A stretch of 64,000 nucleotides of DNA from Cyanidioschyzon merolae. Lineage: Eukaryota. A program made the position numbers and the translations under genes. The first letter of the stretch is position 1; each line of letters begins with the position of its first letter. The stretch lies in the NCBI GenBank assembly GCA_000091205.1, contig AP006502.2. One strand, written 5' to 3'. This document shows positions 13,204 through 64,000 of the stretch, piece by piece. The notes beneath the pieces were generated by a model that did no database searches, had not been told where the DNA came from, and saw nothing but the letters and a program-made list of their open reading frames with translations.

Positions 13204-16200
13204 ATAAGTAGAGGGAGCTAGGCACGTCAGCGATCTCGCTCAACGCGTGTGCTCAGTTGTTTACCGAGCCGCATGCACAGGTCGGTTGTTCGCTCGAAGC
13301 GCGGGTACCTGGCGGCGGCGACGCGGTGTGTATACCCGGTTGCGTCGGAGGCATCACCGCGGCCGTTGGCGCACTGCGCCGCTCTGCAGCTTGCCGGGTG
13401 AGTGCGGTGGCGCGCCGGCGCTCGGCACAGAAAGCGGAAGAAACAGGATCTCATCGCCGGCGATAGCGAAACGCGTATGCAGGCGACTTTCGCCCATGAT
13501 ACATGATATGCTGTGACCTGGAGGTTTGGATGCAGCACAGTGCATGAATGCAAGAAGCATCGCAAGCTGCGTATCTACTGTTGGAAACGGAGCAAGAGAC
13601 TGCCATGCTCTGCACAAGACTCGATATTCCATGAACGCTTGATGAATGCGTCTGTTTGGGATTGAAGCTTGAACAAGAGAGCCATGCAGGGGATGTTGTG
13701 CCCTGCCATAGGCGCTACCTGCTACACACTGGCTGTTCTGCGGTGCTCGTCGTTCCGAAATAGTACGGTTATTCGTTGTTTTGTGGGCTTGAGTTCGAGG
13801 CTATGATCCGGAGAGGGCCTGCCTTGGCGACGATGCCCTACATGTCGTAAGGGCGTGTTTCTGAAAGTAGTCCTTGACGTACCGTGCATTCGACAGGAAG
13901 AGGTCGTGCATTGGCCTCGTGGTTTGTCTGTACAGGCGCTCCGGAAGGCGATGATACATATCGGAAGCTCATCTGCGGGATTTCAACGGGCGACTGGAGT
14001 GCGCGACCATTGATACAACCAATGCATCGAAAGAACCACTTACAAATGGATAACACTCGCGGCAACTGACTATTGACTGCTCCCAAGACTACCCGAAGCT
14101 GTAAGGATGCCGTCCCGCTAGTGAATCACTTCAGAAGCACAGCGTTCGACCACTAGACGCCGCCAGGAAACACTGCCGAATGTCGCTGGAATGCGCCATC
14201 CACTTCATTACAAAAGCGAGTTGTCGATGTGGGATCCTACCGGAGTTTCCTATGTATTCATGAACGAGATATCCATGTTCTATGTCGAGAGTTTGCAAAC
14301 GTATATCAAAGTCTGTGCCCGTTCTGCCCTCCGGAGACTGAATACAGTTCTGCATCCAAGTCAGAATAGAATAGAGGAACAAAGTGTGCTGTCTGGACCC
14401 GGCTTTCCATGTTTTCCTCCATTTTATCAAATGTATAGCCTCGGCATTGGAAACGCGTCATTTGGGGTCTCGGCATTCATACGAATTTCTATGATTCTCG
14501 TGGGTTGTAATGGAGGAGCTTCTTGCCGTCTTCGCCACTGGAGCCTGTTTAATCACAGAAATCGAGATGATTCGCCCCGCCCTCGAACAGGGCATCGAAG
14601 AACGGCCGATATTCTTATTCAATGCACGTGCTCGCGCCCCGACTTGTTTCCTTTCGCGTCACATGTTCAAATCAGGTGCTCGCGAGTTTTTCGATGTTCT
14701 GGTTCAAGGCAATTTGTGGGTAGAGCGATTCGCGCCACAACCTAAACAAGAAATGAGTTTCCAAAAAAGCCTGTAGAATGCCGTTATACAATTTCATGCC
14801 TAGCTTTCACTGATTTTGTCATATGAAACAATCCGCCGCGTTAGAAGGACAAGTCCTTCTCTGGATATAACCATCGGAGAAACGGCCTTTGATGCCATCA
14901 TAATGTCTGTTAGCAGGTATGCTCTGAAAACCTCACCTCTCTTGTGTTCGCATTGCACAATGACTGGGACCCGTGCTCCCGTCATTGCATTCACTGCTCT
15001 GAGAGGAGAGTGCGTCAACGTTTCAGATGCAGTGTACCTATCCATTCCGAAATTTCCGAATTGTTCTCCGTTCAGGATACTCCTAGAGGTACTTGGTCCA
15101 TCACAGACGATATCGCGCCCCATAAATCCTCTAAGGAATGAAACAGTGCGCGCTTTCGTGTTCCGCGGATAGCCTGCGCGCCCCAGGGGCCCGCCCAGAA
15201 GTTATCCTTGACCGTAGCGTGCGGCACAGGGCGCGGGGACGGAAGAGTGCAACCAGAATGGACTCCTCTACTCGGCAGGGGCGTACACCGAGCGATGAAT
15301 CAGGCGTTCGGGCGCACCAGGCCAGCGCTCGAAGCAGCGCTGTGGTGCACTTATTGAATTGCTCGGGCATAGCCATATACCACCACTTCGAAGGACGTTT
15401 TGTGGCTGAACTTAAAGAAGATGATAATGGCGAAGGAAACGCAGATTGCAACATCTGCCCGTTTACGAAATTTCTGGCCAACAATCGGAAGCGATACATT
15501 CTTGATTTGAAGACTGCGATCAATATTCTTCGACAATTGACAACGGAGCTACAGCGAGAAGAGAGACCGCCGTACAGAATGCGGGAGATAAGAGAGAGGA
15601 AAGGGAAGCAGTTGCAGAAAGGACCCGCAAGGGATCGTTTTCATGACAGTGCGCAGAGACCTGATGTTTCGCGCGTGCATACGAGTCAAAGTGCATGGTC
15701 TGCGGTAATCTTCGCTGGGTACGATGTCCGCAGATTGCCGAACCTGACACGTGTCTTTCGGACAGCGCGCACCATGCTCATGGACGCACGCTGACCTTTT
15801 TGATAAACAATGTACAGTTAGGGCCGATGTCCAAGTCCGTGCCCCAGCCGCCTCTGATCCAGTCCGTGCAGGCGCGCGCTGCACATCCGTGGTGCCGGGC
15901 ACACGCGGCACCCATTCGGGCACACGTCTCATCCGCCGCCGCTTTCGACGACTGCGCGGGAAGCGCAATCCAGTCCGAGGCGTCGCGTGCCGATGCGCGC
16001 TCTCAGCGATGATCAGGGAATATCTGCGAACACGCGCCTGTGATGGCGCTTGTAGCGGGTGTTTCCATCTACGGGCAAGGGAAGGGTCGGCGACACCTGG
16101 CGTTCCGTTGATCAACTGCTGAGCACAGAACGGGGAACAAGACGTTTATTGAGGTGAGTGTGCTGCAGCGCGCGAGACAATTCCATCAGGCGTGCACCTT

Positions 16201-17696: not shown

Positions 17697-20600
17697 CCAC
17701 ACACGCATCCAGTTCTACTTCATCGGCGGCAACGTCGGCTGCGTTCGACGATCCATCGTGCGCGCTGCAGCGAGCGTCGGCATCCGAAGTAGCACCGCGA
17801 ACTGCGTTGTAGGCGTTCCAGGCTCTGCTTTGTATGCCGTCGTCTCATCGCTTAAAGGCGGGAACCGTTTACGTGCTTGACTAGTGGAAGCGCACGCGAT
17901 CGAATCTGTCACCCAAGCGCTGGGAAGCGTACGCGTGGATGCCAATGCCCGTAACGATGCGCTGATGCCTCGAGCGCCATGCCTGATGCGCTGCCAATGT
18001 CGGTGGCGGGTCAGAACCAATACGAACCGTCCAATGGACGACGCTATGCACAAAATGGAACGCCACGGCATCCGCTGCGCTCCGGCGGCGCCGTTATCGC
18101 TGCATCTATCTGCATGATCGATATGAACGAATCGAGTGCGTTCCACTCCGAGCAGCGAATTCTAGAACACGTGCACCAACACGCCTTTTTGATTTTGTTT
18201 GTTTTCCTCGCATGTACGCAATAAGAGCATCATATCTTGTGCCTAAGAGAATTGTCGCGGAAAGACTCGATGCTGTCGCTGCTATCGTACGAAAATCGGC
18301 CTTAGTTACGCAAGTCAGTGCTTCCACGTTGAGCAAGTAGATCGACGACCCGCGACTAGTCCCTGTGCTGGATGTCGCGCACCCAAAACAGAACGTTTTA
18401 AACGCTTTCTACGAGACTGCATCCAAGTCAATCCAGTTCACCCCGAAGTTCTCGTACAAGTACCACGAAAGAATCTATAGGACATGAAGTTTCTTTACGG
18501 AGCATACGAACGATAATAAGGAGACACGATGCTCAACGAGAAGCGCCCGCCATTACATGAGACCATGGCACCTTGAACAAAATTTCTATGTCTTTCTTAC
18601 TAAACAAGAACGCTGATTACAGGAGAGATGCGTCTTCAGCTCACTCGATGAAATATCGTTGAGCAAATATAGTAGATATGTACATTGATTCTCCAAGAGC
18701 CTTCATGTGCTGTTGGTAAAGAAGAGCTATGCGGGCACGCGGACAACATCATCCCTATCGGGAATTCAATCGCGTGGTCGCCTACAGACTGTTACGCGGT
18801 TAGGATTCTTCAATACCTCAATCTTCCTCGAGGAGCCTCCTGCCTTATTTCTGACCTGCTCACAGACAACGTGGTTTTCCATCACTCAAAAGCGGTAAAG
18901 CAGCTCGCGGTTGAGAAGAAGGCGGAGCTCGACCTCATGGGAGCGAGTCCTCCCTGGTTCAATCCCGTACAAGGCGATTTCTCTGCTGCGAAACGCCGTT
19001 TTTGCGCTTACGGATTCGTAGACGATTCGTTCGCATCGGTGACACGGAAGCGCAAACGGCGCTTCTGTGACAATTCATTCTCTACACTCGCCTTGATGGA
19101 CCTCATCGCGCAGCGGATGTTAGGAGTTCCCCACGCAGGGCTATCCGCAGTACACATTCCGCTGTAGGTTATGGAGCAAAGCTGCGTGCACGGCCATAAT
19201 TGCTCCTCGGCAAACAAGAAGCAGTACTGCTTGACTGGGGCATCACAGCGTTGCCTATACGCTTCCAAGAATCCCTTGGAATGTCGCCGTGCCACCTCGG
19301 CAATCGGCACATAGACAGCGCAGGTTCCAGCAAGTATTCAACGAACCTGAAATACCAGAATCTTTCGCAGGTCGGTCTCGAGCACTTCATGAGGTGCAGC
19401 ATTTGGACACGCCACCTTCATATTGCTGGCAAAGAAAAATCGGGACTGACAGAGCGATGCTCGGGGTGTTCATGGGCGCAAATAACGAGCTGATGGCGAA
19501 TGGGCTCGACGTGCTATCGAGTTCGGAAGCGGAGCCACAGCGAGAGCGAGAGAGTCGCTTTGGATCGTCCAAGCGCTTCGCGCAGCTGTGAACCCCGAAG
19601 CTACCAACGAAGTATGCAAGGCGTAATTGGAATGCCATATCTGCTTTCCTCTGATCTTGATCGACTATGTTATCGCGATGATGGCGCTACAGAGCATGGG
19701 ACACGCCCGACCCGGATCCGTGCGCCCAAGTCTCCACATGCGTCCATTTGATGTGGTCCAGATATGGCCAATCCACACATATGGTACTATTACGAGTGAT
19801 TCTGTGCTGTATATGCTCTTTAATGGCTAACCATGGTCTCCACAAGCAACTATGAAGCATTAGAAAACTCTGTGAAGAATGTTCGCGTAGCTCGTTCAAG
19901 GGATCCCTTTTGCAGCGAATTACATGGAAAGAAATTCTCATGGACGATAGCGATCGATAGAATATCGATTTGCGTTCATGCGGCAAAGATCTGGGCCTGT
20001 ATCGAGCACCGGGACGCATGCTCATTCATTCAAGGTTGACGAATATGGAGACAATGTGGCGGGCGTGAATCCCGAGTCCAAGGGCTCTCGGGCGTCGCCG
20101 TCCCTCCAAGTCAAGAGGACGGTGCCAGAGACCTGAACGGAAAGCAGATGAAGTCGCTCAAATTTTCCAGGACTCGCGATGATTGCGAGTCGGGCGCTTC
20201 AGACTCTGGGAGGCACACAAACAATACAAAGTGCCTGTCCATGGATCCATCTCGACGCTTTGAGCACCACATCGAGCGGAGAAGCACGTTTGTTTAGGCT
20301 TCATTCATGCAGTAGATCAGCGTCCAGATGTCTCACACGAACGATCTTTGGAGAAAGCAGATGAGACTGCGCTGCGCTGCGCTCGCCAATGCTCTCTGTT
20401 CCACGAAGGCAAGAATCGTGCATTCGTAACTCGGTCTGTGAATTGGAAAAGCATGCGAACGCAAAATCGCGTTGTTCCGTAATAGCATGTGGCGTTCTAT
20501 GTGCTGTGATACCCGAGAGCAGCACTCTCACTCGTTCAAGCCGAGCGTTTAACGAGTGCAGGAATCGGTTCCGCACGATTCCCATCCAAGAGTTCCAGAT

Positions 20601-21780
20601 GGCATCCACGCATACCGAACACTTGTGCATGATGAAAAAAGTTGAGAAGAGGAGCGTCTGACAGAGCCGAATGCATGAGATAGTACACGGTAAAATGAAC
20701 GAACTTCAGATGGCGAGGCGATCGAAAACGAGCGGCTTGGTGTATTGTGATTCCACCAGAGATTCTGTGCGCAAGCACTTGTTTTACACCGAATGTTTAA
20801 CGCCTCGATCAAGAGTCCGAAATATGTTTTACTCCAGTAGCGTCCAGTGGGTGTATAGCAGGCAAATTTTAGAGAGAAGCATCTAGAATTGAGAGTGTGC
20901 CAATTGTCGAGGCGATGAAGACTTGCATTAAAAAACTTCGAGGCCACGGGAGAGGCAATTGCATTCTCGTATGGAGCAAGGCAGCGGTATGGTAGGGGTC
21001 GAAATTCCAGAAAGACCGGGACGCTGCGTACACGCACCGTAAAACGCTTCCACGTCCAGTTGGTAAACGATAATCATGTTCCACCTTTACGTATTACCGA
21101 ATATAAACATTCATTGCCCTTACCCGCCGGAAAAACGCGTATCGTATGGTACCGTCGAGAGCGATGCCAAGTCGAGTTTTGTGCAACAGTCTCTGGGCAG
21201 CTTGCGTGACCTGGGCTTGATGTCTTCGATGCGATCGCTTCTGGCCGGTACGCTGTACACCGAATAGTCGAGGCGAGTCGCAGGTGTAGTACGCGGGCTG
21301 CGATTCAGGCTCGGAATCACCAGCGGCGAGAGCAGCGCGTTCTCGTGCCGCCACGCAGCTTCCGTGTCCGGCGGGATGCTGACGTCGCACGGCAAAAGCA
21401 CAGGCGACGTGGCGTCCAGTGGCATGATGCCCGAGAACCGGAAGCATTTATGCCCTCAAAGCTGGTGCAGTTGCCGGGAATCTTCTCCGGAGCAGCAGAT
21501 CATCGCCTATGCTGTAGGCGTGTTAACGAATGCTCACAAATGCCGTCCAGAATATCTCGATGGGCAAGCAATCCACATCATCCTCTGAAAGCGCGGGTCA
21601 CTGCGCAGGATCGTCTCCCAGCAGGATGTCGGCAGCGCACTGCTGTCCTCGCCTCGCTCGAAGCGAGCATTCACCCAGAACCAGGGTATGCAAGGACGTC
21701 GTGACGGACACTGGGCGTTGCGCTGAAGCCTCCGCTGCCGATTGCATCGCGCCCAGCGATGCAATCGGTACCGAACCGCT

Positions 21781-29630: not shown

Positions 29631-30186
29631 GCCACTGGTAGTGCTGGAGGTGGCCTCTTTGATAGCATGCTCACGTGCGCTGGAACGCAACCTGCGCATT
29701 TTAAAATGAAGCGGGACGCGCCTGTCGCTCCATCATCTCTTCGCGTTTTCGCAGCGTCACTGCGGGATGATATGCCCAGCCTACGCAAAAGAGCATGCCC
29801 ATTGATGCCCTGTGCCTGCTCATTTCATATGATACCGAAACAGGCACCAGCGAGTGCTTGTGAATCTCTTCGCGGAGCTTTCCCATTCAGGGTAAAGGAA
29901 AATGGTATTCAGGCCCATGTACGCCGCGACCAATTTCCTATAGTCTTTCACCCCAGTGGTGTTGTGCACCCCCAGGTGCGGTCATCAAATGCGTTTTAGC
30001 GGCTTATAGCAAATGCATTCAAAGTGCGTTCGTTTGAAGAATTAAAAAATTCGAGGGAAAGCCATGGAGATGTAAGTCGGGGATCCCGGAAGGCCGTCAT
30101 CGCCGGCAACCCGGAAAACAACAACCGAAAAATCCCCATCTCGTCGACCACTGAGCGAAAAAGAGCGAAAGGCGAGGAAAAAGTAG

Positions 30187-30603
30187 GGAGATAGTCCAGA
30201 AAAGGGGTTTGCCCCACGGAACGACGCTGAGTCTGTAGTGGCACACAGGGCACGCATTCGAGGAATCCTTGCACTGGTGAATTCAGCCAGCGGCACTGCA
30301 CGCAACGAGTTCATCAACCGAGACTTTGACGCTGCCATCGATATCAGACGATGTGCGGTGCTACAGACGAGACACGAGGACCCGTCATAATCCAGGTTTG
30401 TGCAGCAGCCTCTCAGGCTCGAAGTGTGCCTTGATAAACTGAAACCGACAGCAGGCGGCTGGTCACAAAAGACTCGGAGGCGTCTGCGCGTGCGTACATA
30501 CAATTACCCTCCATGGTCTTGGGTCATTTTTGGTATCATGGACGCTGCATTTATAATCCGGTTATCTTTGATGGCGCCCAACACGACCACGAACATGAAC
30601 TGA
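30187..30603 (+). pseudogene. TnpB/Fanzor-like nuclease C-terminal fragment (copy 2), frameshifted
   Basis: Frame 1 reads ...HRARIRGILALVNSASGTARNEFINRDFDAAIDIRRCAVLQTRHEDPS*. This aligns with copy 1 (...RRAKVRGLLALVSTTIDGKKHMEYVNRDCNAAINIRRCAVME) across the RuvC-III motif. Homology continues downstream in another frame (EVCLDKLKPTAGGWSQKTRRRLRV vs KAELYETKFEAEVRGRFKKTGRRLHV). No RuvC-I/II upstream. Confidence 0.55.
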
Positions 30604-31959: not shown

Positions 31960-33027
31960 TCTCTAAACCAGTTGCACGGTATGCACTGCCTACTCGACGA
32001 CTCGGTGAACTCTAGTCTCCGGCAACGGTTGGCGAGAAACGCTGCGCACGCTTCCGCACGACCAGGACATTGCGGATGTCGTTGAAGAGGCGCGTGCTGT
32101 AGCACTGCATACGCGGAGGCGCTTCAGTAAAGCCTGATGCGAACAGCTCTCGTCCGTTTACGAATAGTGCGGGACTTGTATGAATAGCTTCGGTAGTCCC
32201 TGAGCGGAAAACTTGCGACTTGATTGAGCAGCTGTGTTGTTCTGCGTTCGAAAGGCTCGGAACGGTTGTAAGCACCCGTCAGAGCGCGAGCTGCGACTGA
32301 CAAGCAGGTTGCCTTTGGTTTAGGTATCGACCACCGATGCAAGTGCTGGGGCTTGCACATCTCTGGCAGAGCGCCGAGGCGGTACCTCGGTAGTGTCTAA
32401 CACGTTCGCACTCCGGGGCAGTGGAAACGGCCCTCGTGCGTATCCGTCAGGGCTCTTGCTCTCGCCGCAACTAATGTAATGGAGAGCAGGTTCGAAGACC
32501 ACAAGGGTTTTTGAGTGTTGCAGGGAAGCTGTATTGTCTTCAGAGAAAAAGAAAAATGTCTACGAAGAAATAGAGGCTGGAGCACTTGTAGTTGGTCCGT
32601 CCGCCTTCTTCTGTCCATGGGAACAGAGCTCTACCCTCGTGTCAGGCTAGAATAGAGCACTGGCCTATTTGCGCTGTTCCTACTTTTCGATTTCTCCCTC
32701 AAACTTTTCTAGATGCACAGCTTTGACATTCGAAGCGCACCAGTGAGGGCATACGAATACAAACGTAACTTCAGGATTCTCTGCCGCCTGTTGTGGAGAG
32801 GCTCTACTGACCCTTTGCTGCTGGGATTCATTTTGTCACCGGATTCAAGATGGTTTGCAATGCCCTTGAACAATGGATCGTAAAACAAGCGATATCATTA
32901 TCCTATTTTATCGTGCAAGATTCCACGCTTCGCCATGACTTGCGTATAAAGCTTGCTCAAAGCACGAATTCTTCAAGTTTTCGATCTATGATTTGTTTCA
33001 TCTCATGGGCGGGGCAAATCGCCTTGT

Positions 33028-33579
33028 TTGACTGGTGAGGAAAACAACTCTACGTCGTCCCCAGATGAATATTTCATGCGCTCGTGCCGCATGTTCACTG
33101 AGCTGGTCACGTCGAATGATCGATTCCGCCGAAAAGCAAATCTTCCTCTGTACGTGACCATCGACGAAACGGCATCCGCCAGCACCATCAAGATACCACT
33201 CACAAGATACGCATCACGAGTCTCTCATCTCTTCTGTGTGCCTGAAGAATGGTTAAGGACTCGGACACCAGTCATCGAAACGATCGCTACGAACGGAGCG
33301 TACATCCACTTTCGGAACCGGAAGCGCAGATTGATCGAAATTTCTAGACATGAACTCCAGACTGGATTTTCGTTCCGGTACTTTTTTCCATATGGACGAT
33401 ATGAGGAATCACAAATTCATGATTGCATGGAACAGCGCGCACTTCCATGTGCAACTGACCGAGTAGACGACGTGGGGATCGCCCAGACAAAGCCATTGCT
33501 TGTAAGGTCTAGCGCTGGGCACCAAGACGCAGGAGGGTATCGAGGCGAGGCTTTTGCACCTGGGAACGGTATGTGCTGA
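33028..33579 (+). CDS. ORF encoded inside the inverted repeat; putative N-terminal region of the adjacent Fanzor/TnpB-like gene or a separate unknown protein
   Basis: 183-aa ORF in frame 1, the same frame as the downstream Fanzor-like segments. Ends at TGA where the paralogous copy has TGG and reads on, so this copy looks truncated. No recognisable domain. Confidence 0.4.
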   Translation: MTGEENNSTSSPDEYFMRSCRMFTELVTSNDRFRRKANLPLYVTIDETASASTIKIPLTRYASRVSHLFCVPEEWLRTRTPVIETIATNGAYIHFRNRKRRLIEISRHELQTGFSFRYFFPYGRYEESQIHDCMEQRALPCATDRVDDVGIAQTKPLLVRSSAGHQDAGGYRGEAFAPGNGMC

Positions 33580-33626
33580 GTGCCGAAGCCAGCGTCGACA
33601 CTGTACGGGGCGGTGCTCGCAGGTGG
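33047..33626. repeat. left arm (near-identical core) of a large inverted repeat; partner at 37636-38216
   Basis: Direct comparison of the sequence with the reverse complement of 37636-38216. The encoded peptides differ at 3 of about 175 residues. Homology continues at lower identity (roughly 65-75%) outward to about 32.9 kb and inward to about 33.80 kb. Confidence 0.85.
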
Positions 33627-33753
33627 ACATTTGGTGGGCGTTTGGGATCACCTGAACATAGTCAGGTATCCCGGCTGCGAAAAGCGCACCTGAGCTGCAT
33701 GCAAGGAAGAGGAGCACGGTAATTGAATACTAGATCGTATCTTCCGACTGTTC

Positions 33754-34017
33754 ATGAAAGACATCGACAACAGCGCGAAACTGTACAATCGGTTTCTTTA
33801 CGCTGCCATTAGCATCCTTCGATTCCTGAAGACGGCGCTCGAGAAAAACAAGAGACCGGCGTATTTGCAGCCAGAGATAACAAGAGGAAAAAGAAACTGT
33901 CACAAAACAATCCCACACAAGCTGGCGTCGGTGACAGTGGGAAAAACCAAAAGTTTCGCGTGTACCACCGAATTAGACAGACGACGTCCGTTCCACTCTA
34001 GTCTGACACGGGTCTAG
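33754..34017 (+). CDS. Fanzor/TnpB-like nuclease, N-terminal segment (copy 1), ends at an in-frame TAG (34015-34017)
   Basis: Frame-1 ORF MKDIDNSAKLYNRFLYAAISILRFLKTALEK... Homologous to the inverted remnant MQCVDSCRQQPTRDSNAAIRILRLVPMQ at 37374-37556 (-). Separated from the next segment by a single stop codon. Confidence 0.45.
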   Translation: MKDIDNSAKLYNRFLYAAISILRFLKTALEKNKRPAYLQPEITRGKRNCHKTIPHKLASVTVGKTKSFACTTELDRRRPFHSSLTRV

Positions 34018-34029
34018 TTCGTTGACGCG

Positions 34030-34281
34030 GTGAAGCATGAAGATGAGAAGGAGGCGGATCCTTCGACACAGAAAGTGCATGAGAACGACTTTGTCGTCAG
34101 TGCGGACCCTGGAAAAACGAAAATCGTAACCATCGCAGCATCCAGGCGTGCAGAAGATGGCACTGACGGTAACTTACGTCAGAAAGACATGCGTCTTTTG
34201 ATGTTCTCGAGAGCGAGATACTTCCGAAAATCCGGTATAATGAATGCAAGGAAGAAAATTGTACGTGGAATGCAGGAATGA
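34030..34281 (+). CDS. Fanzor/TnpB-like nuclease, RuvC-I segment (copy 1)
   Basis: Frame 1. FVVSADPGKTKIVTIAA matches the RuvC-I GxDxGxxxxxT motif (catalytic Asp codon at 34105-34107). The frame is lost between 34173 and 34280, where frame 3 takes over. Confidence 0.55.
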   Translation: MKHEDEKEADPSTQKVHENDFVVSADPGKTKIVTIAASRRAEDGTDGNLRQKDMRLLMFSRARYFRKSGIMNARKKIVRGMQE

Positions 34282-35018
34282 AGGACCACCTTGAAGCTTT
34301 GAGCGAGGTGACGAGCCGAGGAGCGGACTTTGAAGCGTTTCGGAAATTCATGGAAGTTCGCGTTGCGCACTGGGATGCGCTGTGGGAGGATTATACCAAG
34401 CCCCGGTGGGCTCGTCTGCGTATGAATCTGTACTGCGGAAAGCAGCGTGCATTTGCGAACTTTTTCAATGAGTTGAGTGCCTTGAAGGAGGATGAAATTC
34501 AGAGGCTCGTAGCAGCGTACGGAGCAGGGCGCTGGAAGAACCGAAAAGGGACTACGCCAGCTCCAACGACCAGAACATACAAAGAGTGCGCACGGCGTTT
34601 CGTTACGATAGCTTTAGATGAGTCCCGAACGTCCTATACACACCATGAACTCGGGTGTGCGCTTCAGAGAGTGGACATGGAAAAGCGCCAGCGGAACCCT
34701 GAGGATATGAAAAAGTACGGACTGCTGACGGAGGAGCAAATGGAAAGGCGAGCGAAAGTTCGTGGACTACTCGCATTAGTAAGTACAACTATTGACGGCA
34801 AGAAACATATGGAGTATGTGAATCGTGACTGTAATGCCGCTATCAATATAAGGAGATGTGCGGTGATGGAGGAAAGACCTCCGGCGTTGACACGAGAGAA
34901 TTTTATGGGGCAACCTCTGAAAGCCGAACTATATGAGACAAAATTTGAAGCAGAAGTTCGTGGCCGGTTCAAAAAGACGGGTAGGCGTCTGCACGTCAGT
35001 CGGAGACGTCTAGTCTAG
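34278..35018 (+). CDS. Fanzor/TnpB-like nuclease, RuvC-II / degenerate zinc finger / RuvC-III segment (copy 1)
   Basis: 246-aa ORF. VTIALDESRTSYTHHELGC is the RuvC-II Glu (34619-34621) followed by a degenerate TSxxCxxC finger. EYVNRDCNAAINIRRCAVM is the hallmark RuvC-III motif (Asp at 34827-34829). Basic tail RFKKTGRRLHVSRRRLV. Confidence 0.7.
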   Translation: MKDHLEALSEVTSRGADFEAFRKFMEVRVAHWDALWEDYTKPRWARLRMNLYCGKQRAFANFFNELSALKEDEIQRLVAAYGAGRWKNRKGTTPAPTTRTYKECARRFVTIALDESRTSYTHHELGCALQRVDMEKRQRNPEDMKKYGLLTEEQMERRAKVRGLLALVSTTIDGKKHMEYVNRDCNAAINIRRCAVMEERPPALTRENFMGQPLKAELYETKFEAEVRGRFKKTGRRLHVSRRRLV

Positions 35019-35068
35019 GGCGCGTCGCTCGCCACTACTGTACACGGTCGGCATCGTTCGACTCTAGA

Positions 35069-36097
35069 ATGGCGTTCAGCGGAAGTTCGCCTGAGCGAGA
35101 GCGCTCTGGGAGTTGGATACCGAATGGATCCGAGTCCTTTTTCGGGAGTGAAGGATCAGAGGCACCTGAGGGCGCTGAAGGTCTGGGCACCGTATACACA
35201 CCGGTGCTCAATGCGGCCCAACGAGCGAAACTAGAAGCGCTTTCGGAGCTGGTGCGCTCTGCCGCCGAACTAAATCTCACGCCGACCGAAAAGGCCTGGA
35301 TGGATGAGGCGTGCCTATCCCGGTTTCTACGGGCGCGACGATATCACGTTCAAAAAGCGTTCCGGCAGCTGCACGAAACGATTGTGTGGCGGCGCAGTTT
35401 CGGGGTAGAGCAGTTGATGCTCGATCCCGAGCTCGCGGACGTCAAGCGCCAGTCTGAGACCGGCAAGTTGTATGTGCACGGTAAAGACCGGTTTGGTCGA
35501 CCAGCAGTCTTCATGAAACCGCGACTGCAGAACACCAGTGAGCGGAAAACGGCTCACGAACAAATGAGGCAGCTTGTGTACACGCTCGAACGAGCTGTTG
35601 CGGAGATGATGCCGCCAGTCGAGAAAATCTGCCTCGTGATTGACTTTCCCGGTTATTCGTTGCGAAATGCACCGTCTATTAAAGTACAGCGACAGACGTT
35701 GAAGATTCTCCAAGACTACTATCCGGAGCGCTTAGGATTCGCTGTTTGCATTGATGCACCGGCAATTTTCTGGACATTTTTTGAGATTGTCAAACCATTC
35801 ATCGATCGGCGAACATCCGCAAAAATACAGTTTTGCAGTCGAAAGGCGAAAGAAGGCACCAAACAAAATATGCGGACGCTGATGAATCAATTATTTGACC
35901 CAGAGGCGCTGGAAATCGAACTCGGCGGGCGAAGCGCTTGGCGATACTCCAATGAGGAATACTTTCGCGAACGAGTGCTTCCTGAGTATTTGAGAATTAA
36001 ATCCTATCCAGAGCGCGTGGAAATGATTCCTTGTGCTGAGGAGGACGTTAATAATACACAGGACGTTTTCTACGACAGCATGAGCTGCCTCGATTGA
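35069..36097 (+). CDS. Sec14-like phosphatidylinositol/phosphatidylcholine transfer protein (CRAL-TRIO domain)
   Basis: 342-aa ORF. CRAL-TRIO N-terminal helices (ACLSRFLRARRYHVQKAFRQLHETIVWRRSFG) and lipid-binding domain (GKDRFGRPAVFMKPR...ICLVIDFPGYSLRNAP...ERLGFAVCIDAPAIFWTFFEIVKPFIDRRTSAKIQF). Confidence 0.8.
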   Translation: MAFSGSSPERERSGSWIPNGSESFFGSEGSEAPEGAEGLGTVYTPVLNAAQRAKLEALSELVRSAAELNLTPTEKAWMDEACLSRFLRARRYHVQKAFRQLHETIVWRRSFGVEQLMLDPELADVKRQSETGKLYVHGKDRFGRPAVFMKPRLQNTSERKTAHEQMRQLVYTLERAVAEMMPPVEKICLVIDFPGYSLRNAPSIKVQRQTLKILQDYYPERLGFAVCIDAPAIFWTFFEIVKPFIDRRTSAKIQFCSRKAKEGTKQNMRTLMNQLFDPEALEIELGGRSAWRYSNEEYFRERVLPEYLRIKSYPERVEMIPCAEEDVNNTQDVFYDSMSCLD

Positions 36098-37373
36098 GTC
36101 CAGCACCACAGGGCCCCGTTGATTTTGCTGTTTACTTGTTCAGTGGGCAAACGAAGCGCTGATAGAATCAGAGTCCTTCGATATCATGATCTGCGTAGCG
36201 TACATCGGTCGTTGGAATTCGTGCGTAGGGAGGATCAGCGACGCTCGAGATACCACGCTCGATGGATATGGAGTTCGATCAGATTTCCGATACGGTATGC
36301 TCTTGACGGATGATGATCAGCGCTTCGAGCTATGAAGGAAATATCGCTTATCAATGATGCGCAGTGTTCGGTTTTAGGCGCAAGGTGCCTGATCATGGAG
36401 CGTGCAGTGGATTCTACTGCACGCAGAGCGATTCGGAATGGTTTTTGAGATGCCAGCACGGTCGCAGCAGGCACTCCTAGAGAATGGTGATACCGAATGC
36501 CGATATGGCGCAATGTGACGACACGAATGTATTCGTTTCGGATGATCTCGGTGTGCACGTCAGAAGCGATCTCGCAGGATGCAACTCGCTTCGTGCGGAT
36601 GTATTGCGCAAGCCGCGGCGCGTTTCAGGAACGACTTGCGTGGGCCCATTCGCAAAGTTTACGAAATCATGCATTGTGCCCAATGCTCGAGTTCCAGCTT
36701 CTAGGTGCTGCAGTCGAACGCCACTCCTGTATCCAGAGAATCATGTTCGGAGGCATATCGAGCTGGCTGTACAGCGGTCTCTTCAAGACGAGTTTTATTA
36801 AAGCCACTGAGTGCATTCGCAAGCCGCTTCGTTTATTTGCGAGCCGCCCAGGTCAACCTTTTTTCAACTCATGGCCTCAGCGAAGTTCATCGAAAAGACA
36901 AACGGGCGCGGGGACACCCCGCAGCACCTACATGGGTACCGGCTTGGAAGCTTCTTGTCAAATAAATTGCGGTACTCGTCATTCGACATCCAGCAACGTC
37001 ATAGATAACGTTCCTGTTGGAAGCTGCGCTCTCGATGGAGTCCGCATCCCCTTTTCAGGTTCCGGAAATTCATGTAAAATAATTTTCCGCGAATAACGCT
37101 CTGCGGACCACGCCTTATCCGATAGCACGTCGAGGCAGGAATCGCGTCGTGTTGAAAACGCAATATGCTCATCCGAATACAAAGCTGAATATAACCTTAT
37201 ACAGTGTGACATAGCTGCTTCCACTCGAATATTGCTACACCTGTGTCAGCATAAATTGGAACGTATTCACTTGGGCAACTCGGGCCTGCTCACTAGAGTC
37301 TAGGTGTCTTCCAATTGTTATCAACACTAGGCTTTGCGGGCTCGTTATCCAACTACCTTCTTTTCCTCACTCT

Positions 37374-37556
37374 CTAACCTCTCAACTTATAACACATCGG
37401 CCTCTCCGTGTCATGCCGCTGCATTGGCACCAGTCGCAGGATCCTGATAGCGGCATTCGAGTCCCGAGTTGGCTGCTGACGGCAGCTGTCGACGCATTGC
37501 ATGCACCGACGGAAGTTGCGACCGATGCCCCGCGTCCCATGTTCATCTATTCGCAT
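37374..37556 (-). pseudogene. remnant homologous to the N-terminal segment of the Fanzor-like gene (inverted copy); body downstream is lost
   Basis: MQCVDSCRQQPTRDSNAAIRILRLVPMQ aligns with MKDIDNSAKLYNRFLYAAISILRFLKTA of copy 1. Nucleotide homology with 33700-33800 is visible (cttccgactgttcatg vs cttccgtcggtgcatg). It is followed by AT-rich non-coding sequence. Confidence 0.4.
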
Positions 37557-38256
37557 GGAGCCGCAATGCGCTGTTCGCAGTGCAGACGCACCTGACTACG
37601 GTCAGCTGTTCCCATTTGTGCACGAGCACACCTGCTCCACCTGCGAGCACCGCCCCGTACAGTGTCGACGCTGGCTTCGGCACCCAGCACATACCGTTCC
37701 CAGGTGCAAAAGCCTCGCCTCGATACCCTCCTGCGTCTTGGTGCCCAGCGCTATACCTTACAAGCAATGGCTTTGTCTGGGCGATCCCCACGGCGTCTAC
37801 TCGGTCTGTTGCACATGCAAGTGCGCGCTGTTCCATGCAATCATGAATTTGTGATTCCTCATATCGTCCATATGGAAAAAAGTACCGGAACGAAAATCCA
37901 GTCTGGAGTTCATGTCTAGAAATTTCGATCAGTCTGCGCTTCCGGTTCCGAAAGTGGATGTACGCTCCGTTCGTAGCGATCGTTTCGATGACTGGTGTCC
38001 GAGTCCTTAACCATTCTTCAGGCACACAGAAGAGATGAGAGACTCGTGATGCATATCTTGTGAGTGGTATCTTGATGGTGCTGGCGGATGCCGTTTCGTC
38101 GATGGTCACGTACAGCGGAAGATTTGCTTTTCGGCGGAATCGATCATTCGACGTGACCAGCTCAGTGAACATGCGGCACGAGCGCATGAAATATTCATCT
38201 GGGGACGACGTAGAGTCTTGCTCGTCGTCAATGCAGTAGAGCGATTTGCCGTACAA
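37543..38256 (-). CDS. paralogue of the repeat-encoded ORF 33028-33579, longer (237 aa) because TGG replaces the TGA of the other copy
   Basis: About 98% identical over 175 aa to ORF 33028-33579. Reads through 47 more residues, then is frameshifted relative to the downstream homologous segment. Confidence 0.4.
   Translation of the reverse strand: MYGKSLYCIDDEQDSTSSPDEYFMRSCRMFTELVTSNDRFRRKANLPLYVTIDETASASTIKIPLTRYASRVSHLFCVPEEWLRTRTPVIETIATNGAYIHFRNRKRRLIEISRHELQTGFSFRYFFPYGRYEESQIHDCMEQRALACATDRVDAVGIAQTKPLLVRYSAGHQDAGGYRGEAFAPGNGMCWVPKPASTLYGAVLAGGAGVLVHKWEQLTVVRCVCTANSALRLHANR
37636..38216. repeat. right arm (near-identical core) of the large inverted repeat; partner at 33047-33626
   Basis: Reverse complement matches 33047-33626 with very few mismatches. 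Flanks diverge on both sides. Confidence 0.85.
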
Positions 38257-41200
38257 CGAGTTGCCTTGAAACTGAAAAATCGAAAACGTGACATGTACGT
38301 GATTCGAGCAAGCTGCACAACTCTAAAGAAAAAGCGTACAGGCTTGTACGTATGACTCGGATGATCAGATCGGTTATAGCACGATTCTTTGTTTACGCGT
38401 TACGTGAATCATCTTGATTCCTGTCATGTAATGAATGCTGGTGTAGCATAGATAGAGCGAGCACTAGTGACGAAATGCATATTAGGTATGCATCTTTCAA
38501 TATGCCATATGCATGACAAAATACTGCACATAAGATTATCCGATCCAATGAGCGCTAGATGTGGCGTATACCTGTGCTCGATCCCGAACTGGAGCGCGAC
38601 GCATTCGCGCTGCACCGCCGGCGATAGCGTACAGCAAGTTCGGGTGTCCAACGCACACGTACTGCATACCATACGCTTGCCACATTCGTGAGCGCGCGTT
38701 GATGCTCCAGTGCCATCGCGGCATCATCTCGAATACGCAACCATCGTGCGTACGCATTCGCAACGCTCCCAGCGGGCGCCGGTCATCGCCTTTGGAACCG
38801 CTTCTTGAGCTGGGCTTGATGGCGTCTTTCAATTTATTGATGGAGTAACATCCCACGATTGACACCATAATCGTTCACCAAATGCTCAAGAAAACCGCTC
38901 CTGGGGTAAATATACGGCGGTCACGCCTTGCTGGATTTCCGACCATATCACACGAATACCGTGCTGCAGGCGGAAACCCAATGCCCTTTCTACTGGCCAC
39001 TGAGTTCGGTCGTCGCAGGTCTCCGTCGTTTTGGGACAATGACCAGATCGAATACTAAGCGTTTCCTTCGAAAATTCTCCGGAGTCAAAGCATCTTGACG
39101 TTCTAGATGCATGAGTCATTTCCGTATATCGGTGGAGGTAATGAGATTTCTTTGCAGAGGATACTTATGTGGGCAAGGTTACAGCGGGAATCACTCTAGA
39201 GTAGCGTCTGTCGTCTCCCATTGCCTCGTAAGCTGGCATTCGCTCGGCCTGCCGCATACGACCTCGTGCATCTGGATCTGTTTCACGCGCTTTGTCTCTA
39301 AGTTTCACAGCGGACATTCACGCCTTTGATGCATGTATGACGTCCTGTAAGTTTCGATGGGAATCGTATAGAATTGACCCCTAGATTCGCAGGATGTTCT
39401 CGTCGTCAAAGGAGCAAAAGTCCAGCACCATGGTCTACCACAAACCACCGCGGCGTGTCGATCGTATCCTTGTCTAGCCCACGGAGCAACTTGGCGAATA
39501 CACGATTCCTACCTCCGTACAACCGAGACGGTTGGCGACACCAGCGCAGTCGCCTGAACTCATGCTAAGGATCGTTCGCAGCAGCGACTTGGGTGCTCGA
39601 CGACACTTGACTGAAGCGTACGGAGCATTCGCTTCTGCTCGATTCGGCGGTCAGCGCGTCCAGATGGGTCATTGCGTCGTCGTTCCACTCGTTGGTATGT
39701 CTCCCGGTGTCCATGATTTTCGATATCCCATGCAACCGAGCAATGGAAAAACCAGGCAGTTGTTCAACGTTTTTCCCGAGCATCAGTTGGCACACGAAAA
39801 ATCTGACTGAAACATTCGAGAGGAATGTAGACAGATGGCAGCTCCGCCTCTGGAATTCCTATGCTATGCATCAATCCTGCCCTAAGAACCGGTTCGCTAC
39901 CGCTTGCGCACGCGCAGCAGAGCAATACAGCAGCCCAAAGCTGTTGAAGGCAGAGAGGAACTTGCCTTTGGAACTTTGAGCTTAAAAGAATAGTTCGACA
40001 ACAGAGAAGACGCCCACGATGGATTTGATCCAGAGAGGATGCCTCGGTACGTAGGATGACTTGATACCAAGCTCAACTGTGCACTACATGACCGCTGTAC
40101 GGTCATGGACAGCGATGTTGCGTACGATCAGGACATAAATATGTGGCAAAGAGAAGCCACGGAGTGCATCAGCAAAGCATTTGGTGTCGAATGATCTCGC
40201 CCGTTTGGCGACTTGTGGTCCACTGAAACTTGAATCGCACGCTAGAGCTGATGCTGTCGGAATGCTCGGTTTTCTATTCCTTGTGAACAGTTGTTTGCCG
40301 TCCTTGGAACACTTATAGATAGGTCTGCCATATTCCCATGGCGCATGCTCGTCGCCCGAGACAAAAGGTAGGCTCTCCTGGAACACGCGTTCGCGTTCCC
40401 GCTCGAGATCGATTGTGTGCCGGGCATCGGACAGCGCTCCACCACAGAGACATGCGCTTTTGGTTGCCCATACGTGTGTCTTAATCACCGGTGCTCCCAA
40501 TGGTATAGATACTTCACAACTCCGAGCTTCCTGGATAGTATTTCGAACAGAACATTTGGAGTGGAGTGTCTTGAGAAGGAAACAGTGATGTGGATAGATT
40601 CTGATGCATTCTGGTTTCGCAGCACGATTGTCAAGATCGCGACTTCAAGAAGGGTGCATCATTTACCAGCTGACCAAAGATTAACCGGTTTCCGCGAGTA
40701 AGGCCAGTTTTCGGAACCCAGCGATAGCAGTACAAAGTCTTTCGGCTACCTAAACCCTATGTGCAGAACCAAACTTGTTCTGCTGAATACCTGCGAGGGA
40801 AACGAACAAAAACGAAAAACAAGTGTGCTGGCACACGAATTCCAGAATGCACTTATCTGCGTATAACGTTGCTTACATGTAGCATACATCACCGTAGTAC
40901 AAAAAATACGGTCGACGACTTGTCCGGTTTCCCGCATGCTCGAGACACTGACGCCTGCAACGGAAGGATTCGTTTAACCGAAATGTCCATCCGCGGCACA
41001 CGCAGAAGCGGCATGACACCAGGCCCGTTCCGGAGAGATTTGATGCATCCGAATTCCCAATCGAGGGACATTGCGATGCCGTGCGACTCACCCAAGACCA
41101 CGAGGCCTTGCGCCTTACACGACGGTGACCTGCTTTCCTGAAAGATCTCTCAATTTATGGGCGCATCATCGCAGTCTCTTCTCGTGGATCGAGAAATTCG

Positions 41201-45113: not shown

Positions 45114-48100
45114 TGGTTCAGCTCAGATGGACTGCGGTCTCGTCGCCACGATGACTGGCTGGTGCGAGGTTCGCGAAACGCACGCTCTCGTGTATGGATG
45201 CGTACTGGAAGTAGAGCGCCCCGGCAGACGAGCGAATCATCTATCATTCGACGCCGGAGCGCAGGCGCTCCGTTGCGATCGACAAGCGCCGCCGCCGTAC
45301 CCGTATTTGCGCCATGCGGTGTATTCTGTCGCGATTTCATGGCAGGTGAAGTGCAGCAATCTCTCGATGTCGATACATATGTAATGTAATCGGGATGTGG
45401 TACACGGATGCTGCTACTGCTGCCACATTAGTCGTGTGATGCAGGCTGGCGCTGCTGTACGCATCGATGCATTTCGTTACGGGAGATCGGTGCGCCTGTG
45501 TGCATCTTCCGAATGTGCTTCTTCTTTGGACAGCAGCTTCGTCTTGAGGATGACGGATCGATGACTTGACGTAGATATTTTCGGACGTACGTGGAACGAA
45601 CTGCAGTAGCGCCTGCGTTAGTGTCCGATTTTCCCGGTACCCGGTGGTGCTCGTTGCATTGAGGGAAATCAGCGGCACGCATGCATCTGGAGGATTCTTG
45701 CTCTTGCGTATTACTTTCCGGGAGATTTCCTGATAACGATAGGAATTGCAGCTGCATTGTGCGGGCTCTAGTGTTGCGATGGCACCGGTAGACAATGGAC
45801 GTGCTCTTGGGCGGGAACGGTCATCAGTTGAACACGTGCGAATGCATCGAACGTCCGACCTCGGGACGCTTTGCTATGGTGCCAGGCATCTTGGTATATG
45901 CACAGGCTCTGAACATTGAGTTTCTTGTGTTCATTGAAATCGAGACAGAGGCTTTTATGAGTATTGCATGCTTTTTACCTTGAAGACAGACAAACGCCAA
46001 CCGCACTTGCACTGCAGCTTACAAGGCTCATGGAGCCGTGCGAGCCTCGTTGACGCGATGCATTTGCCAGATTGGATCGGATGTTATTAACGTGCACTGC
46101 CGAGTCCCGACGCTCGCTCTGCGTTCAACAGAACCAAGGCCCTCTGACGATGGTACCGAGAGCATCGGTCGCATCCTGAGCCATGTCCCGGCCCGCCGAC
46201 GCATCTCGTTGCTTCCGCACAAGCAGCGGCACTCGTGCCTATCTGTTGGTAAACTCAATTCCGGGTAAGATGGGAAGGATCCACACACGAGACTCGAGCG
46301 TAGATGCTCACGTTGGGGTCGCTTCGTACGGTTATCAATACAAATCTTTGCGCGCTGCTCTTCGATCGCTTCCACTTCATCAGTCCCACCTCTGCATTAA
46401 AGAACGCAGATGCTGCCTTTTGCTTCAAGCTCCGTCGTCAGCAGTCGAATGATACGGATTGTAGTTATAAAGTCCCGATTTCGCTGCTTTCGTCTGCATT
46501 CAATGCACTGCATGCAAAAATGGCATTTGCGATGTACGCATCGCTTGCCATTTTCATCTTTTTTGTACAAATCCCCAGTGTACGCTTTGCATTTGCGACG
46601 CCTGGTTGTGGGCTGATGGTCCGGTATAGCTACCGCCACACGTCCTCCTGCTCTTCGGGTCGTCGTGTGGAGTATCAACGCGTGCTTCATTCCGCTGTAC
46701 ATGCCGTTGGCGGGTACGGGAGCCCCCGTCCAATGCCATCCCCAGTTTCACGCGCGATTCCGTACCCTACAATCACGCTCCTCTCATGGGCAATACCCGC
46801 GGTGCGTACGCTATCCGCTGCGCGCGGCAACGAACGTGCTTCTATTCGCAAATAGAATTGTGGAACGCAGTATTATATACTATAAAGCAACTAACGACAG
46901 TAGCGTCCAGGCTGACGAGCAAGTCGGGAATTTTCAATCCTTGTGTGCTCCCATCGAACAAAGCGGTGACGCACTCCAGACTCGGAGCGATCGCATCGCT
47001 CATTGGTGTCGACGTCCGAGACCCTTTTCCATGTAAATAAAAGAAACGCGAGCCTCTGGGAGCTTATCCAGTGACATGTATCTTGTTGATCGCGAATGCC
47101 GTTTCATCGACGGCCACGAAGAAGCGAGGACTTGCCTTTCGAACGGAACCAATTTTATATATGACGGGTTCGCCAAACATTCCTCATCGGCTTGTGACCA
47201 AGTCGCCAAGAGATGACGTCCTGCTTTTTTTCATCGTCAATCGAGCGGCAGGAATACCTGCGCCTACACCTTGCCTTGGAACAGAGGGACGGAATCCGTG
47301 CAGCGTGAATCATTTGAGCATGCGACACCTACGGAAATGAGAAGCGTGAAGGTATATACGCACGGACCCAATACTGATATCGTTTATCTTACGAACTCTT
47401 GGTCCAGCGTGTCGCGAATCTCCCCGATGATGTTGATGTGACGAATCTCATTAGCAAGGAGTCGAAGGAGCCGCACCACCCCACGCCTCCGAAAGCACTA
47501 TCCAGAATCCTAAAACTACTTATGGATCCGTAACCCCTTATTATTGTTCACCGAAATGTCGACGGCGTGCCTCTGAAAGAGTTTGGCAAACAATCGCAAC
47601 GCAAGAACACGGCGAGTAGATCATCGCTTCATGATAAGCAGATTCAAAAGCAGTCGCTGCTGAAACGCGCGATTCGGTAGCGCAGCATGAATGTTCTGAG
47701 CTTGCGCGCTCAAAACAAGATTTCCATTACCTCATTGACACACTGAAAGACTCACAAAGCCGTGCAACCTCTACGATACCTGTCGATCACATTCCGATGC
47801 ACCTGCTCTCTAAAAAAGGCTTCCGCGCTCACCCAGGCACGCCAACTCGCTACGTCTCTACCACGATGGTACCCCACGACAGCTACCAAGGCTGCAAACC
47901 GCTTGCATAGAAACACAAAGTTACCTCAAGCCGCTCCCATGGTGCTTTCGGAGCTGCACACCGAAGCCAGGTCGAGCGGATCGACCCGCTGCCGCACCGA
48001 GGTGTCGTCAAGTGCCTCGCGCCCCTGCCCAGGACGCTGCACACGCGATCCTTTGCCACAAACGCCCAGTCGCGCTGCGCCAGCACGGCAACGTTCATTG

Positions 48101-61281: not shown

Positions 61282-64000
61282 CCGCTTACGATCTGTCCGC
61301 TGCGAGCAACGTGTCAGGCTGCGCGCTGTATATTTGTCACTAAATAGTCATAATTGTTCTAGGATTGGTAGTGGGTCCGGGCATGTGCCGAGCGCCCGAC
61401 AGCATTGCCCGTGTGATCTGCGGCGCTCGCGCACCTTGACGTTCTGGTTCGATTCCTCGGTGCTATCCATAGAAATAAATGCGAGCATGAGCGTCTGCAG
61501 TGCTCGGACACCATCATGTTTCCGAACGTTTCCAGTTGGTGCATTTATTCGAGGAGGGCGCTGCGATCGCATGGGAACAAGTACAAGTTTGAACGCTGCG
61601 TAGCGTCTGATGCCCAGAGTCTGGACTGAATGGAAACGAACTTAAAGTTTGAGCATGGTCGGTATAGCCGTCGGTGGGTATCTCCCGTCCAGAGAGCTGT
61701 ACCGCTGGTGTCTGTAGCACTGCGTCTGTTCCAGATTCGAATAGAAACAGGGAACTGCGCGCTTTGTACTTTCTGTCATGAGTTTTTCCTGCAAAATTTT
61801 TTAGACTTCCAGCCACGACATTCGCTATGCACCTCGAGAAGCTTACAGATTCAAATGCCTTCTCAGGATACTTCATCGTGTTTTTGGAGCGGCGCTTTCG
61901 ACGCTTCGTCGATGGAATTCTTTATGCCATCTTTGTCAAGATGATTCACGGGGCTCTTGAACGAGCGTTGGTACAAGAACTGATATCACTATCGAATTCA
62001 CAGGTATATGCCTCCATGTGTCTTTGTTCCTTGCGAGTAGCATGCTCGAGTCACGCATTCTTCATGATTGGGTCCGCTTGTTTCAAATCCATTCCTCGAC
62101 GCTGGATGGATGATGGAGAAATCGAAAAAGTCCCATGACTACTTGTTTACCAGCTTGGATTTTGTTCCCGCTATTCGTTTCCCCATGGTCAACATCGCGT
62201 TCCACACACCAATTATCGAAAGGGATAGCATGCGCGTGCAGCCGACAGAGTGCTCGCCGCAGAGATCACCCAAAAGTAACCGGTAATTTCAAGATACAGC
62301 ACTGGACTCGAAAGCGGAGTAGGGCGTTGAGGGCGGCCTCATGCACCCGTCATGGACTTGTGCTGAGCGATGAGGCGAGCGCGTTTGCCCCTCAGTGCAG
62401 CGCTCGGAGCAGCGGCCCAGATCGTACCTATATACATGTATATTGAAACACCTGAGCACAGTCCAAGTTTCACCGCTACGATCTACGCGCCCAGGCTGTA
62501 CACGAAGAACATGAAAACGACAAGCGAACCGCAGATCGCAACTTTCATTTGTGCACAACAAGCGTCGACTCCCACCAAAGGCGGTGTAATCGGAGCTACC
62601 TCGCTGCCACCAACATCTGTCGACTACTGCCGATAAAGCTGGATGGAAAGGGGAAACAGGCCGGTTTAAAGCCAGAGCTTCGAGAGAAGCAAAGCAAACA
62701 TTTGCAGATGTAGCTCACATCGGCCAGCGTTTATGACATTGCGACGAGACCCAAACTTTCGTATATGCACCGGAATGCGTAAAGTGTACCCGTTTCATTG
62801 TATGTTGACATTGGCGTTGAGCAATGATAAATTCGACGTGTAGCCGCGGAACCAACAAATGCTGTGCTCGCCCCGTGGCCGCAAAAAACCGCAACAAGAC
62901 AGGTGAATGCCCTTAAACGACAACGGTACAACGCGTGGATGTGCAGACGACGACAGAAATGGCCAAATGCGAACAGGCATCGACATACTGGGGCTGCTCA
63001 GTGGCCCGCGCCAGACGACCAGTGCGCAGTGAACGCACCTTCTGGCTCGGTGTGAAACTATTCTGAATTTTACCGGAAGCATATTCGTGCTTGTGCTTAT
63101 AGAGCAAGGCGTGTGTGAGACGCATCTGGACTTGCGCGATACGCACGCTCACTGTCGACATGCCGACGGGGATTTTCGTACTCAGCGTTACCGCGCGGGG
63201 ACACCACAGCGCGTTGCGCACGGTACCTCGAGCTTCCGAAATGCGCGGTTGCAGCGTTTGGAATACGTTTACGCTGGGTCTACCTCCGAGCTAGCCGTCA
63301 GCGACGGCACTCGGAGGAGCAGCGTATCCGCCCGAAACGGAGCATTTCTTGCGGTGTGCGACACGCACCGCATTCGGCTCCCCATGGAGCTGGTGTCAGT
63401 TCCGAGAGCGCGCTCATCGTTGCCAAATGCCGGAGCTTGCGCGCGGCGTTTCGTTTTATGTGACTCCGGAATGATGCACAAGGCGTTCTTGCTTGATATT
63501 CTGTAGCGATTTGCGCTCTTGCTGCCCACGAGCAGCCTCGGCAGTTACGTGATTCCGCGTCGTTTCCAGTGTACTGCGCTCGCTGGTTGTGCCTATGCTC
63601 CAGAACGACGCGAGCGAAGCGTCGCGAGAAATACACAGTACTCCCGCATGCTGACGTGACCAAGCGTTCCACGACGGGTCGGGTGACGGCAGCTATTGGC
63701 GACGCAACTCGTTTCTCCATCGAGTCAGTAACTCCAATGCCGTTATGCGCAGCTCTGAACGTACGTTGCGAGTCGCTTGCATCCAGCAAACGAGTGGAAT
63801 TTTCATCCGCAACCTAAATTCATGATCCATTCGCCATCCATACAGTGTCCTGGATACAACGGTTCTTCGGGAGAGGATCCCGTATTCCTGGAAGCAGCGC
63901 TCATCGTAGAGCGCATCGTGCCCGCTGGCACGACGCTGAGCGCCCGTGTGGCGGCCTTGAAGGCCGATCGCGCGTGCCCTAGCCATGGCGGTTTCACGGC

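Follow-up and report, generated by a model that had tools for sequence, protein, structure and literature searches.

Fanzor1 proteins of Cyanidioschyzon merolae have been described under the name CMe-1, and they are carried by CMe-1A elements of ~3 kb, which number ~150 in C. merolae, show ~80% identity to the consensus copy by copy, and include some that are still intact (Bao and Jurka 2013, Mob DNA 4:12; PMC3627910). In the same study, the Fanzor genes of Chlamydomonas have 5-10 exons. The characterised members of Fanzor1 are RNA-guided endonucleases and include SpuFz1 (PDB 8GKH, 9CEU), PpFz (9CF0) and GtFz (9CER); bacterial TnpB and Cas12f are more distant systems with which a comparison can be made.

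We analysed a stretch of 64,000 nucleotides of C. merolae 10D nuclear DNA (the window), in which an original prediction had recognized a Fanzor gene copy, here called copy 1, that appeared to be interrupted by one in-frame TAG and one change of reading frame, and for which a pseudogene and a gene with unannotated introns were both considered. Copy 1 is a known kind of transposon relic, from a family described in 2013. It shares with CMe-1A the organism, the protein family, the presence of many decayed and some intact copies, paralogues that are ~80-86% identical, and a Fanzor element on which no TIRs are seen. It differs from the published element, to which it was matched through the published description, in being frameshifted and in retaining only the 3' ~40%. 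The reading that we consider very probable is that copy 1 is a nonfunctional CMe-1A relic, 5'-truncated at a neighbouring TIR element, with a 1-nt deletion and no introns.

The Fanzor1 family and the extent of copy 1

A search with the stitched protein of copy 1 returned 203 homologues, most of them 75-82% identical and most from JGI metagenome assemblies, and a search of a representative library returned 2,472 related clusters. Each intact homologue is encoded in one ORF without interruption, is 676-702 aa long and starts with an N-terminal basic (NLS-like) MPPK.KRK segment. A profile of 79 diverse full-length homologues, when compared with PDB sequences, matched Parasitella parasitica PpFz (E = 3.4e-21), Spizellomyces punctatus SpuFz (2.2e-14) and Guillardia theta GtFz (1.3e-10); a shallower profile of 11 sequences found no match among PDB sequences. 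The breadth of the alignment mattered in the same way for structure prediction, as 41 closely related sequences gave an AlphaFold pLDDT of 51.5 in the RuvC half, and the addition of diverse relatives, which also yielded the profile matches to PDB, gave a mean pLDDT of 90.9 in the AF2 model of the intact homologue P0096. The fold (WED, REC, RuvC and TNB) was tested on P0096 rather than on copy 1. In a Foldseek search of the PDB, the top seven matches of this model are all Fanzor1 structures (SpuFz, PpFz and GtFz; E = 1e-16 to 1e-18, TM 0.53-0.73), with Cas12f more distant. Sequence profile and predicted fold agree in placing the family within Fanzor1.

Besides profile and predicted fold, the family shares with SpuFz1, PpFz and GtFz the RuvC D/E/D triad, and the three residues concerned (D398, E569 and D636) are invariant among the 79 diverse homologues. 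The identity to these characterised endonucleases is only 11-16%, and the frameshift and the loss of the WED/REC half leave copy 1 unable to adopt a Fanzor fold. The likeness to TnpB and Cas12f consists of a distant fold match to AsCas12f (Foldseek E 1e-3 to 1e-5) and a weak match of PF07282 (Cas12f1-like TNB) at the RuvC-III motif of family members. These matches are far weaker than those to Fanzor1, and CMe-1A resides in a eukaryotic nucleus, with the N-terminal basic segment present in its intact relatives. Neither the stitched copy nor the intact homologues matched any Pfam family significantly. Separately, PF26935 (DUF8286) is listed in the precomputed annotation of many family members, including P0007, P0010 and P0011; when P0032, P0104 and P0113 were compared with Pfam by hmmscan, nothing was found at E <= 0.01, PF26935 included. 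If genuine, this DUF would give Pfam a means of recognizing the N-terminal half of Fanzor1.

Copy 1 measures 1,045 bp, compared with a CMe-1A unit of ~2.7 kb (~2.65-2.9 kb when the paralogous loci L002 and L009 are compared), and contains one 75-nt linker unit, RuvC-I, RuvC-II and RuvC-III, the zinc-finger/TNB region and the basic tail. Its features are the following.

34018-35062, plus strand: 5'-truncated CMe-1A fragment with the C-terminal ~45% of the Fanzor1 gene (DNA and profile homology)
34105-34107, plus strand: RuvC-I aspartate codon (SADPG), aligned with invariant D398
34620-34622, plus strand: RuvC-II glutamate codon (LDESRTS; family consensus VDEFRTS), aligned with invariant E569
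34827-34829, plus strand: RuvC-III aspartate codon (NRDCNAAINI; family consensus NRDFNAAINI), aligned with invariant D636
35016-35018, plus strand: TAG stop codon usual in the family, found at the equivalent position in L009; the ending ...WRRFV recurs in several family proteins

The limits of copy 1 were obtained from both DNA and protein comparisons. L002, L008 and L009, three paralogous loci whose encoded proteins are intact or nearly so, align only across 34019/34021-35056/35060, at 84-86% nucleotide identity, and the homology runs ~45 nt beyond the stop codon, to ~35060. A profile HMM of 10 full-length homologues (profile length 603) matches frame 1 at 34015-34296 (HMM 294-385) and frame 3 at 34254-34940 (HMM 372-600). 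Copy 1 is thus not a complete uninterrupted Fanzor1 coding sequence, since it covers profile positions 294-600 of 603 and is split over two frames. It corresponds approximately to residues 375-676 of P0096, and the absent WED/REC half amounts to ~375 of ~680-700 residues, the first ~55% of the protein. The Fanzor profile finds no match in any frame upstream of copy 1, and a Fanzor 5' part was sought to the left of the adjoining 1.39-kb repeat and was not found there.

The catalytic residues and the basic tail are all present, as had been predicted. Two observations count against a relic: copy 1 departs from the family at only 4 of 83 conserved columns, and an ATG-started ORF of 246 codons (34278-35018) is still open. 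In this subfamily, the linker ahead of RuvC-I is built of tandem 75-nt units (25 aa, acidic, KDEEKKEA...) in variable number, with six in L009 (1719-2168), about two in L002 (5533-5682) and one in the window copy (34018-34092), and the truncation junction of copy 1 coincides with the start of such a unit.

Four further Fanzor1/CMe-1A relics were observed in the window.

19200-20906, plus strand: near full-length Fanzor1/CMe-1A relic in at least four frame pieces
29939-30491, plus strand: internally deleted relic, in which a 5' piece (29939-30121) is joined to a C-terminal piece (30257-30491)
39762-39041, minus strand: C-terminal Fanzor1 fragment of Fanzor1/CMe-1A
54157-53813, minus strand: C-terminal Fanzor1 fragment of Fanzor1/CMe-1A

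The 5' piece of the internally deleted relic matches L002 at 4136-4314 and L009 at 429-559, and is real CMe-1A 5' sequence.

Four ORFs of the window match annotated proteins of C. merolae 10D exactly: MTHFR (BAM83511.1), DnaJ (BAM83513.1), SIR2 (BAM83504.1) and SEC14 (BAM83510.1). Rfam and tRNA scans of the whole window found nothing. The last of the four genes is the immediate neighbour of copy 1.

35069-36097, plus strand: host SEC14 (CRAL-TRIO) gene, an exact match to BAM83510.1 (Pfam CRAL_TRIO, E = 6.9e-39)

Its start codon lies 6-9 nt past the 3' end of the Fanzor element (35056-35069). The relic might act today as promoter and 5' leader of SEC14 through co-option of a dead CMe-1A fragment, although we regard this as unlikely. 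A similar arrangement was seen at the L008 locus, in which the element ends (~1308-1333) ~20 nt ahead of the next called gene (COPI_assoc), and in all four loci examined, a sample too small to judge, Fanzor and the gene downstream of it share a strand. The proximity to gene starts could reflect a preference of CMe-1A for insertion at the 5' ends of genes in a very compact genome.

The repeat that adjoins copy 1

The original prediction had taken the TAG at 34015-34017 as a stop codon that interrupts the Fanzor copy. Frame 1 does run from 33754 to 34281 with this single TAG, and the coordinates are correct; the interruption itself does not stand. Fanzor homology, in protein as in DNA, is absent upstream of the TAG. 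Because that homology starts at 34015-34019 and another repeat extends up to 34017, the TAG is a feature of the junction rather than a nonsense mutation within the gene. The repeat, of 1.39 kb, is present in six copies in the window.

32631-34017, plus strand: repeat copy a, 1,387 bp +/- one base (TIR arms 32631-32656 and 33992-34017)
34015-34017, plus strand: the "in-frame TAG" at the Fanzor junction, formed by the final three bases of copy a's right TIR (copy-end alignment and TIR arms)
37235-38436, minus strand: repeat copy b, aligned to 32826-34017
4500-5878, plus strand: repeat copy c (TIR arms 4500-4529 and 5849-5878)
46418-47628, minus strand: repeat copy d (alignment to copy a)
14311-15676, plus strand: repeat copy e (alignment to copy a)
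61732-62810, plus strand: repeat copy f (alignment to copy a)

Copy b is 78% identical to copy a overall, and the other copies are 57-61% identical to it. The TIRs are imperfect, 26 nt long with 77% complementarity in copy a and 30 nt long in copy c. The 3' ends of four repeat copies align up to ...CGTTCCAnTnTATGCTGACACGGGTGTAG and then diverge at once, and the conserved terminus ends ...GGGTGTAG or ...CTGACACGGGTGTAG. The 5' ends share CTRC.TCCGTGTCAG..TAGAATAG, the inverted complement of the 3' terminus, and the two ends together read 5'-CTRC.CCGTGTCAG...CTGACACGGGTGTAG-3'. With its 26-30-nt imperfect TIRs, its dispersed copies and no recognisable transposase, the repeat resembles non-autonomous TIR DNA transposons. 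No shared target-site duplication was seen in the flanks of the aligned copies, which are ~40% diverged.

Copy a contains an ORF of 183 codons (33028-33579) and an ORF of 87 codons (33754-34014), and neither has a match in Pfam. The 87 codons, which had been taken for the N-terminal part of the Fanzor copy, are repeat sequence whose open frame is, by chance, in register with that of the Fanzor fragment. Two other assignments of the same codons were tried and rejected: a by-eye alignment to the Fanzor REC region was not significant and the region belongs to a different repeat, and a RuvC-III-like motif scored -2.1 bits in hmmsearch, which is not significant either. The identification of a 615-bp inverted repeat with the published 635-bp TE-N2_CMe or with the 5' end of CMe-1A was also discarded, as the repeat unit is 1.39 kb, has TIRs of its own and shows no match to L002 or L009 in their 5' regions.

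The argument for decay in the original prediction was that the repeat ORF upstream of copy 1 differs from its paralogue by a single nonsense change, TGA (33577-33579) versus TGG. This difference lies in a segment of exceptionally high identity.

33047-33627, plus strand: ~99%-identical tract within copy a, paired with 37636-38216, minus strand, within copy b

Outside this shared tract, which corresponds to the 615-bp inverted repeat, copies a and b are only 50-60% identical. The two copies flank SEC14 in inverted orientation, ~4 kb apart, and the pattern is best read as gene conversion between two old inverted copies. In the 581-bp core, eight differences were counted, of which four are synonymous, three are non-synonymous and one is the TGA/TGG change. 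The change is thus true in the sequence but is accompanied by seven further differences, and it belongs to the TIR repeat, so that it is uninformative on the Fanzor fragment. The tract is also present in a second assembly, L001.

The frame change, recent substitutions and alternative readings

The original prediction further held that frame 3 opens at 34173 and carries the rest of the protein to 35018, with the frame switch somewhere within 34173-34280. Both points were confirmed, with a TAA at 34170-34172 preceding frame 3 and the TAG at 35016-35018 ending it, and nucleotide alignment to the paralogues narrowed the switch to one position.

34261/34262, plus strand: single-nucleotide deletion, frame 1 to frame 3 (paralogue alignment)

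At this site, the window and L001 read ATTG-TACGTGG, and L002, L008 and L009 read ATTGAGACGTGG or ATCGAGACTTGG (I-E-T-W). Over a slightly wider interval, the paralogues read AAAAT(T/C)GAGAC(G/T)TGGAAT (K-I-E-T-W-N) versus AAAATTG-TACGTGGAAT in the window. The deletion is the sole gap in 1,043 bases aligned to L002. It falls in the collinear conserved KKIETWN motif, between RuvC-I and the remaining RuvC domain, and the W and N that directly follow do not vary among 11 aligned sequences and are conserved at 90% or more in larger alignments.

The assembly L001 is an independent MEGAHIT metagenome contig from ENA. It is collinear with 33541-38124 of the window, and the gapless alignment of 4,584 bp contains 55 mismatches (98.8% identity). 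The TAG junction and the 1-nt deletion are identical in L001, which shows that the lesions are real and inherited. Between the window and L001, 18 of the differences in the Fanzor fragment are non-synonymous and 5 are synonymous (Nei-Gojobori omega 1.04), whereas the corresponding counts for SEC14 are 3 and 6 (omega 0.15); the two patterns differ at p = 0.035 (Fisher, on small counts of 23 and 9 differences). Copy 1 now evolves neutrally. When copy 1 is compared with intact paralogues, omega is 0.21-0.28 with dS of ~0.43. Because of these low values, and because only 4 of 83 conserved columns deviate, most of the divergence of copy 1 arose while its lineage was functional. On the recent branch, omega is ~1, in support of decay.

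The differences between the two assemblies are not evenly spread, with 9 of the 55 lying within 67 bp around the RuvC-III motif (34807-34873). At several of these sites (H/R, Y/F, C/F), L001 carries the family consensus (KKRMEFVNRDFNAAINI) and the window deviates. Either conversion of a short stretch by a paralogue or a local run of mutations could account for this cluster.

Four other readings of the locus were weighed against the relic. The one that survives best, though we consider it very improbable, is that a truncated and domesticated RuvC-II/III protein is made from the 246-codon ORF (ATG at 34278, to 35018). In favour of this reading, the frame is free of stops from its ATG onward, and gene calling on the other assembly reported it as well (P0023). 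Nevertheless, its product would lack the RuvC-I aspartate and all RNA-binding domains, it shows 12 non-synonymous and 3 synonymous differences between the assemblies (omega 1.17), and it is missing from the annotated C. merolae proteome; neither this ORF nor the 237-codon repeat ORF has an exact-sequence match in the protein collection.

The second reading, an intact gene with two short unannotated spliceosomal introns, one removing the TAG and the other restoring the frame, has to be taken against the known introns of the organism. The genome sequence of C. merolae showed 27 introns (PMC4829280), and an RNA-seq study raised the number to 39, each of which has GUAAGU at the 5' site, AG at the 3' site and, with hardly any variation, ACUAACC as its branch site (10.64898/2026.05.17.725761); the main text of that study mentions neither transposons nor the present locus. 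Candidate introns can easily be drawn, as 55 in-frame GT..AG pairs span the TAG and 90 GT..AG pairs restore the frame, and Fanzor genes of some other eukaryotes, such as Chlamydomonas, do contain introns. However, each of the 90 frame-restoring pairs cuts out sequence that the intact paralogues retain and read without interruption, and even with the shortest candidate at the site ETWNAGMK would be lost, including the W and the N. Intact family members are single uninterrupted ORFs, and the sequence that precedes the TAG is not Fanzor. With 27-39 introns per C. merolae genome and strict signals, none of these signals is near either lesion: CTAAC does not occur within 32600-35100, and the single GTAAGT in that interval, at 34779, is in a conserved LVSTT coding stretch downstream of both lesions. 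Furthermore, at the frame change the window has one base fewer than the paralogues, not extra sequence. Since the paralogues are collinear and the candidate introns remove sequence that the paralogues keep, the change of frame is a frameshift mutation and not an intron, and we give the two-intron gene almost no credence.

Errors of sequencing or assembly in a gene that is otherwise intact could also have produced the stop codon and the frameshift, single-base indels being a common assembly error, but this is exceedingly improbable given that L001, although 1.2% diverged, has the identical TAG and deletion in a gapless alignment and that a protein with both lesions repaired would still lack the N-terminal ~375 residues. 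Equally implausible is recoding by TAG readthrough and programmed -1 ribosomal frameshifting as in some IS elements, for although a -1 slip would give the needed direction from frame 1 to frame 3, the sequence at 34249-34266, read directly, has no X XXY YYZ slippery heptamer, the relatives are in one frame and thus have no conserved frameshift signal, and substitution across the region is neutral.

Origin and significance of the relic

Given the deletion and the neutral substitution pattern, the choice posed by the original prediction between a pseudogene and introns falls on decay, and the intron side is refuted by the collinear paralogues and the missing splice signals. The argument that intact catalysis favours introns fails, since the catalytic residues are kept because the copy was inactivated recently relative to the long purifying selection on the family.

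What is left of the CMe-1A copy is its 3' ~1,045 bp, with the linker and the RuvC nuclease half of Fanzor1, and this fragment starts exactly where the right TIR of the unrelated 1.39-kb element ends. The junction may have arisen when the TIR element inserted into a CMe-1A copy, or it may be the product of a deletion anchored at the repeat end. The single-base deletion at 34261/34262 breaks the frame between RuvC-I and the remainder of the domain. Copy 1 presumably has no functional product.

The biological weight of this locus is low, as it is one among roughly 150 decayed copies of the C. merolae Fanzor1 family that were catalogued in 2013. Its bearing on the reading of such loci is more general. 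Two unrelated repeats that abut can look like one open frame running past a stop codon, and intact catalytic residues are no argument against a pseudogene when the copy is recently dead. Where a genome has only a few dozen introns, with very strict splice signals, unannotated introns should not be the first explanation to be invoked. The locus of copy 1 should be excluded from the mining of Fanzor nucleases, for which related metagenome assemblies from hot springs offer intact relatives of 676-702 aa.
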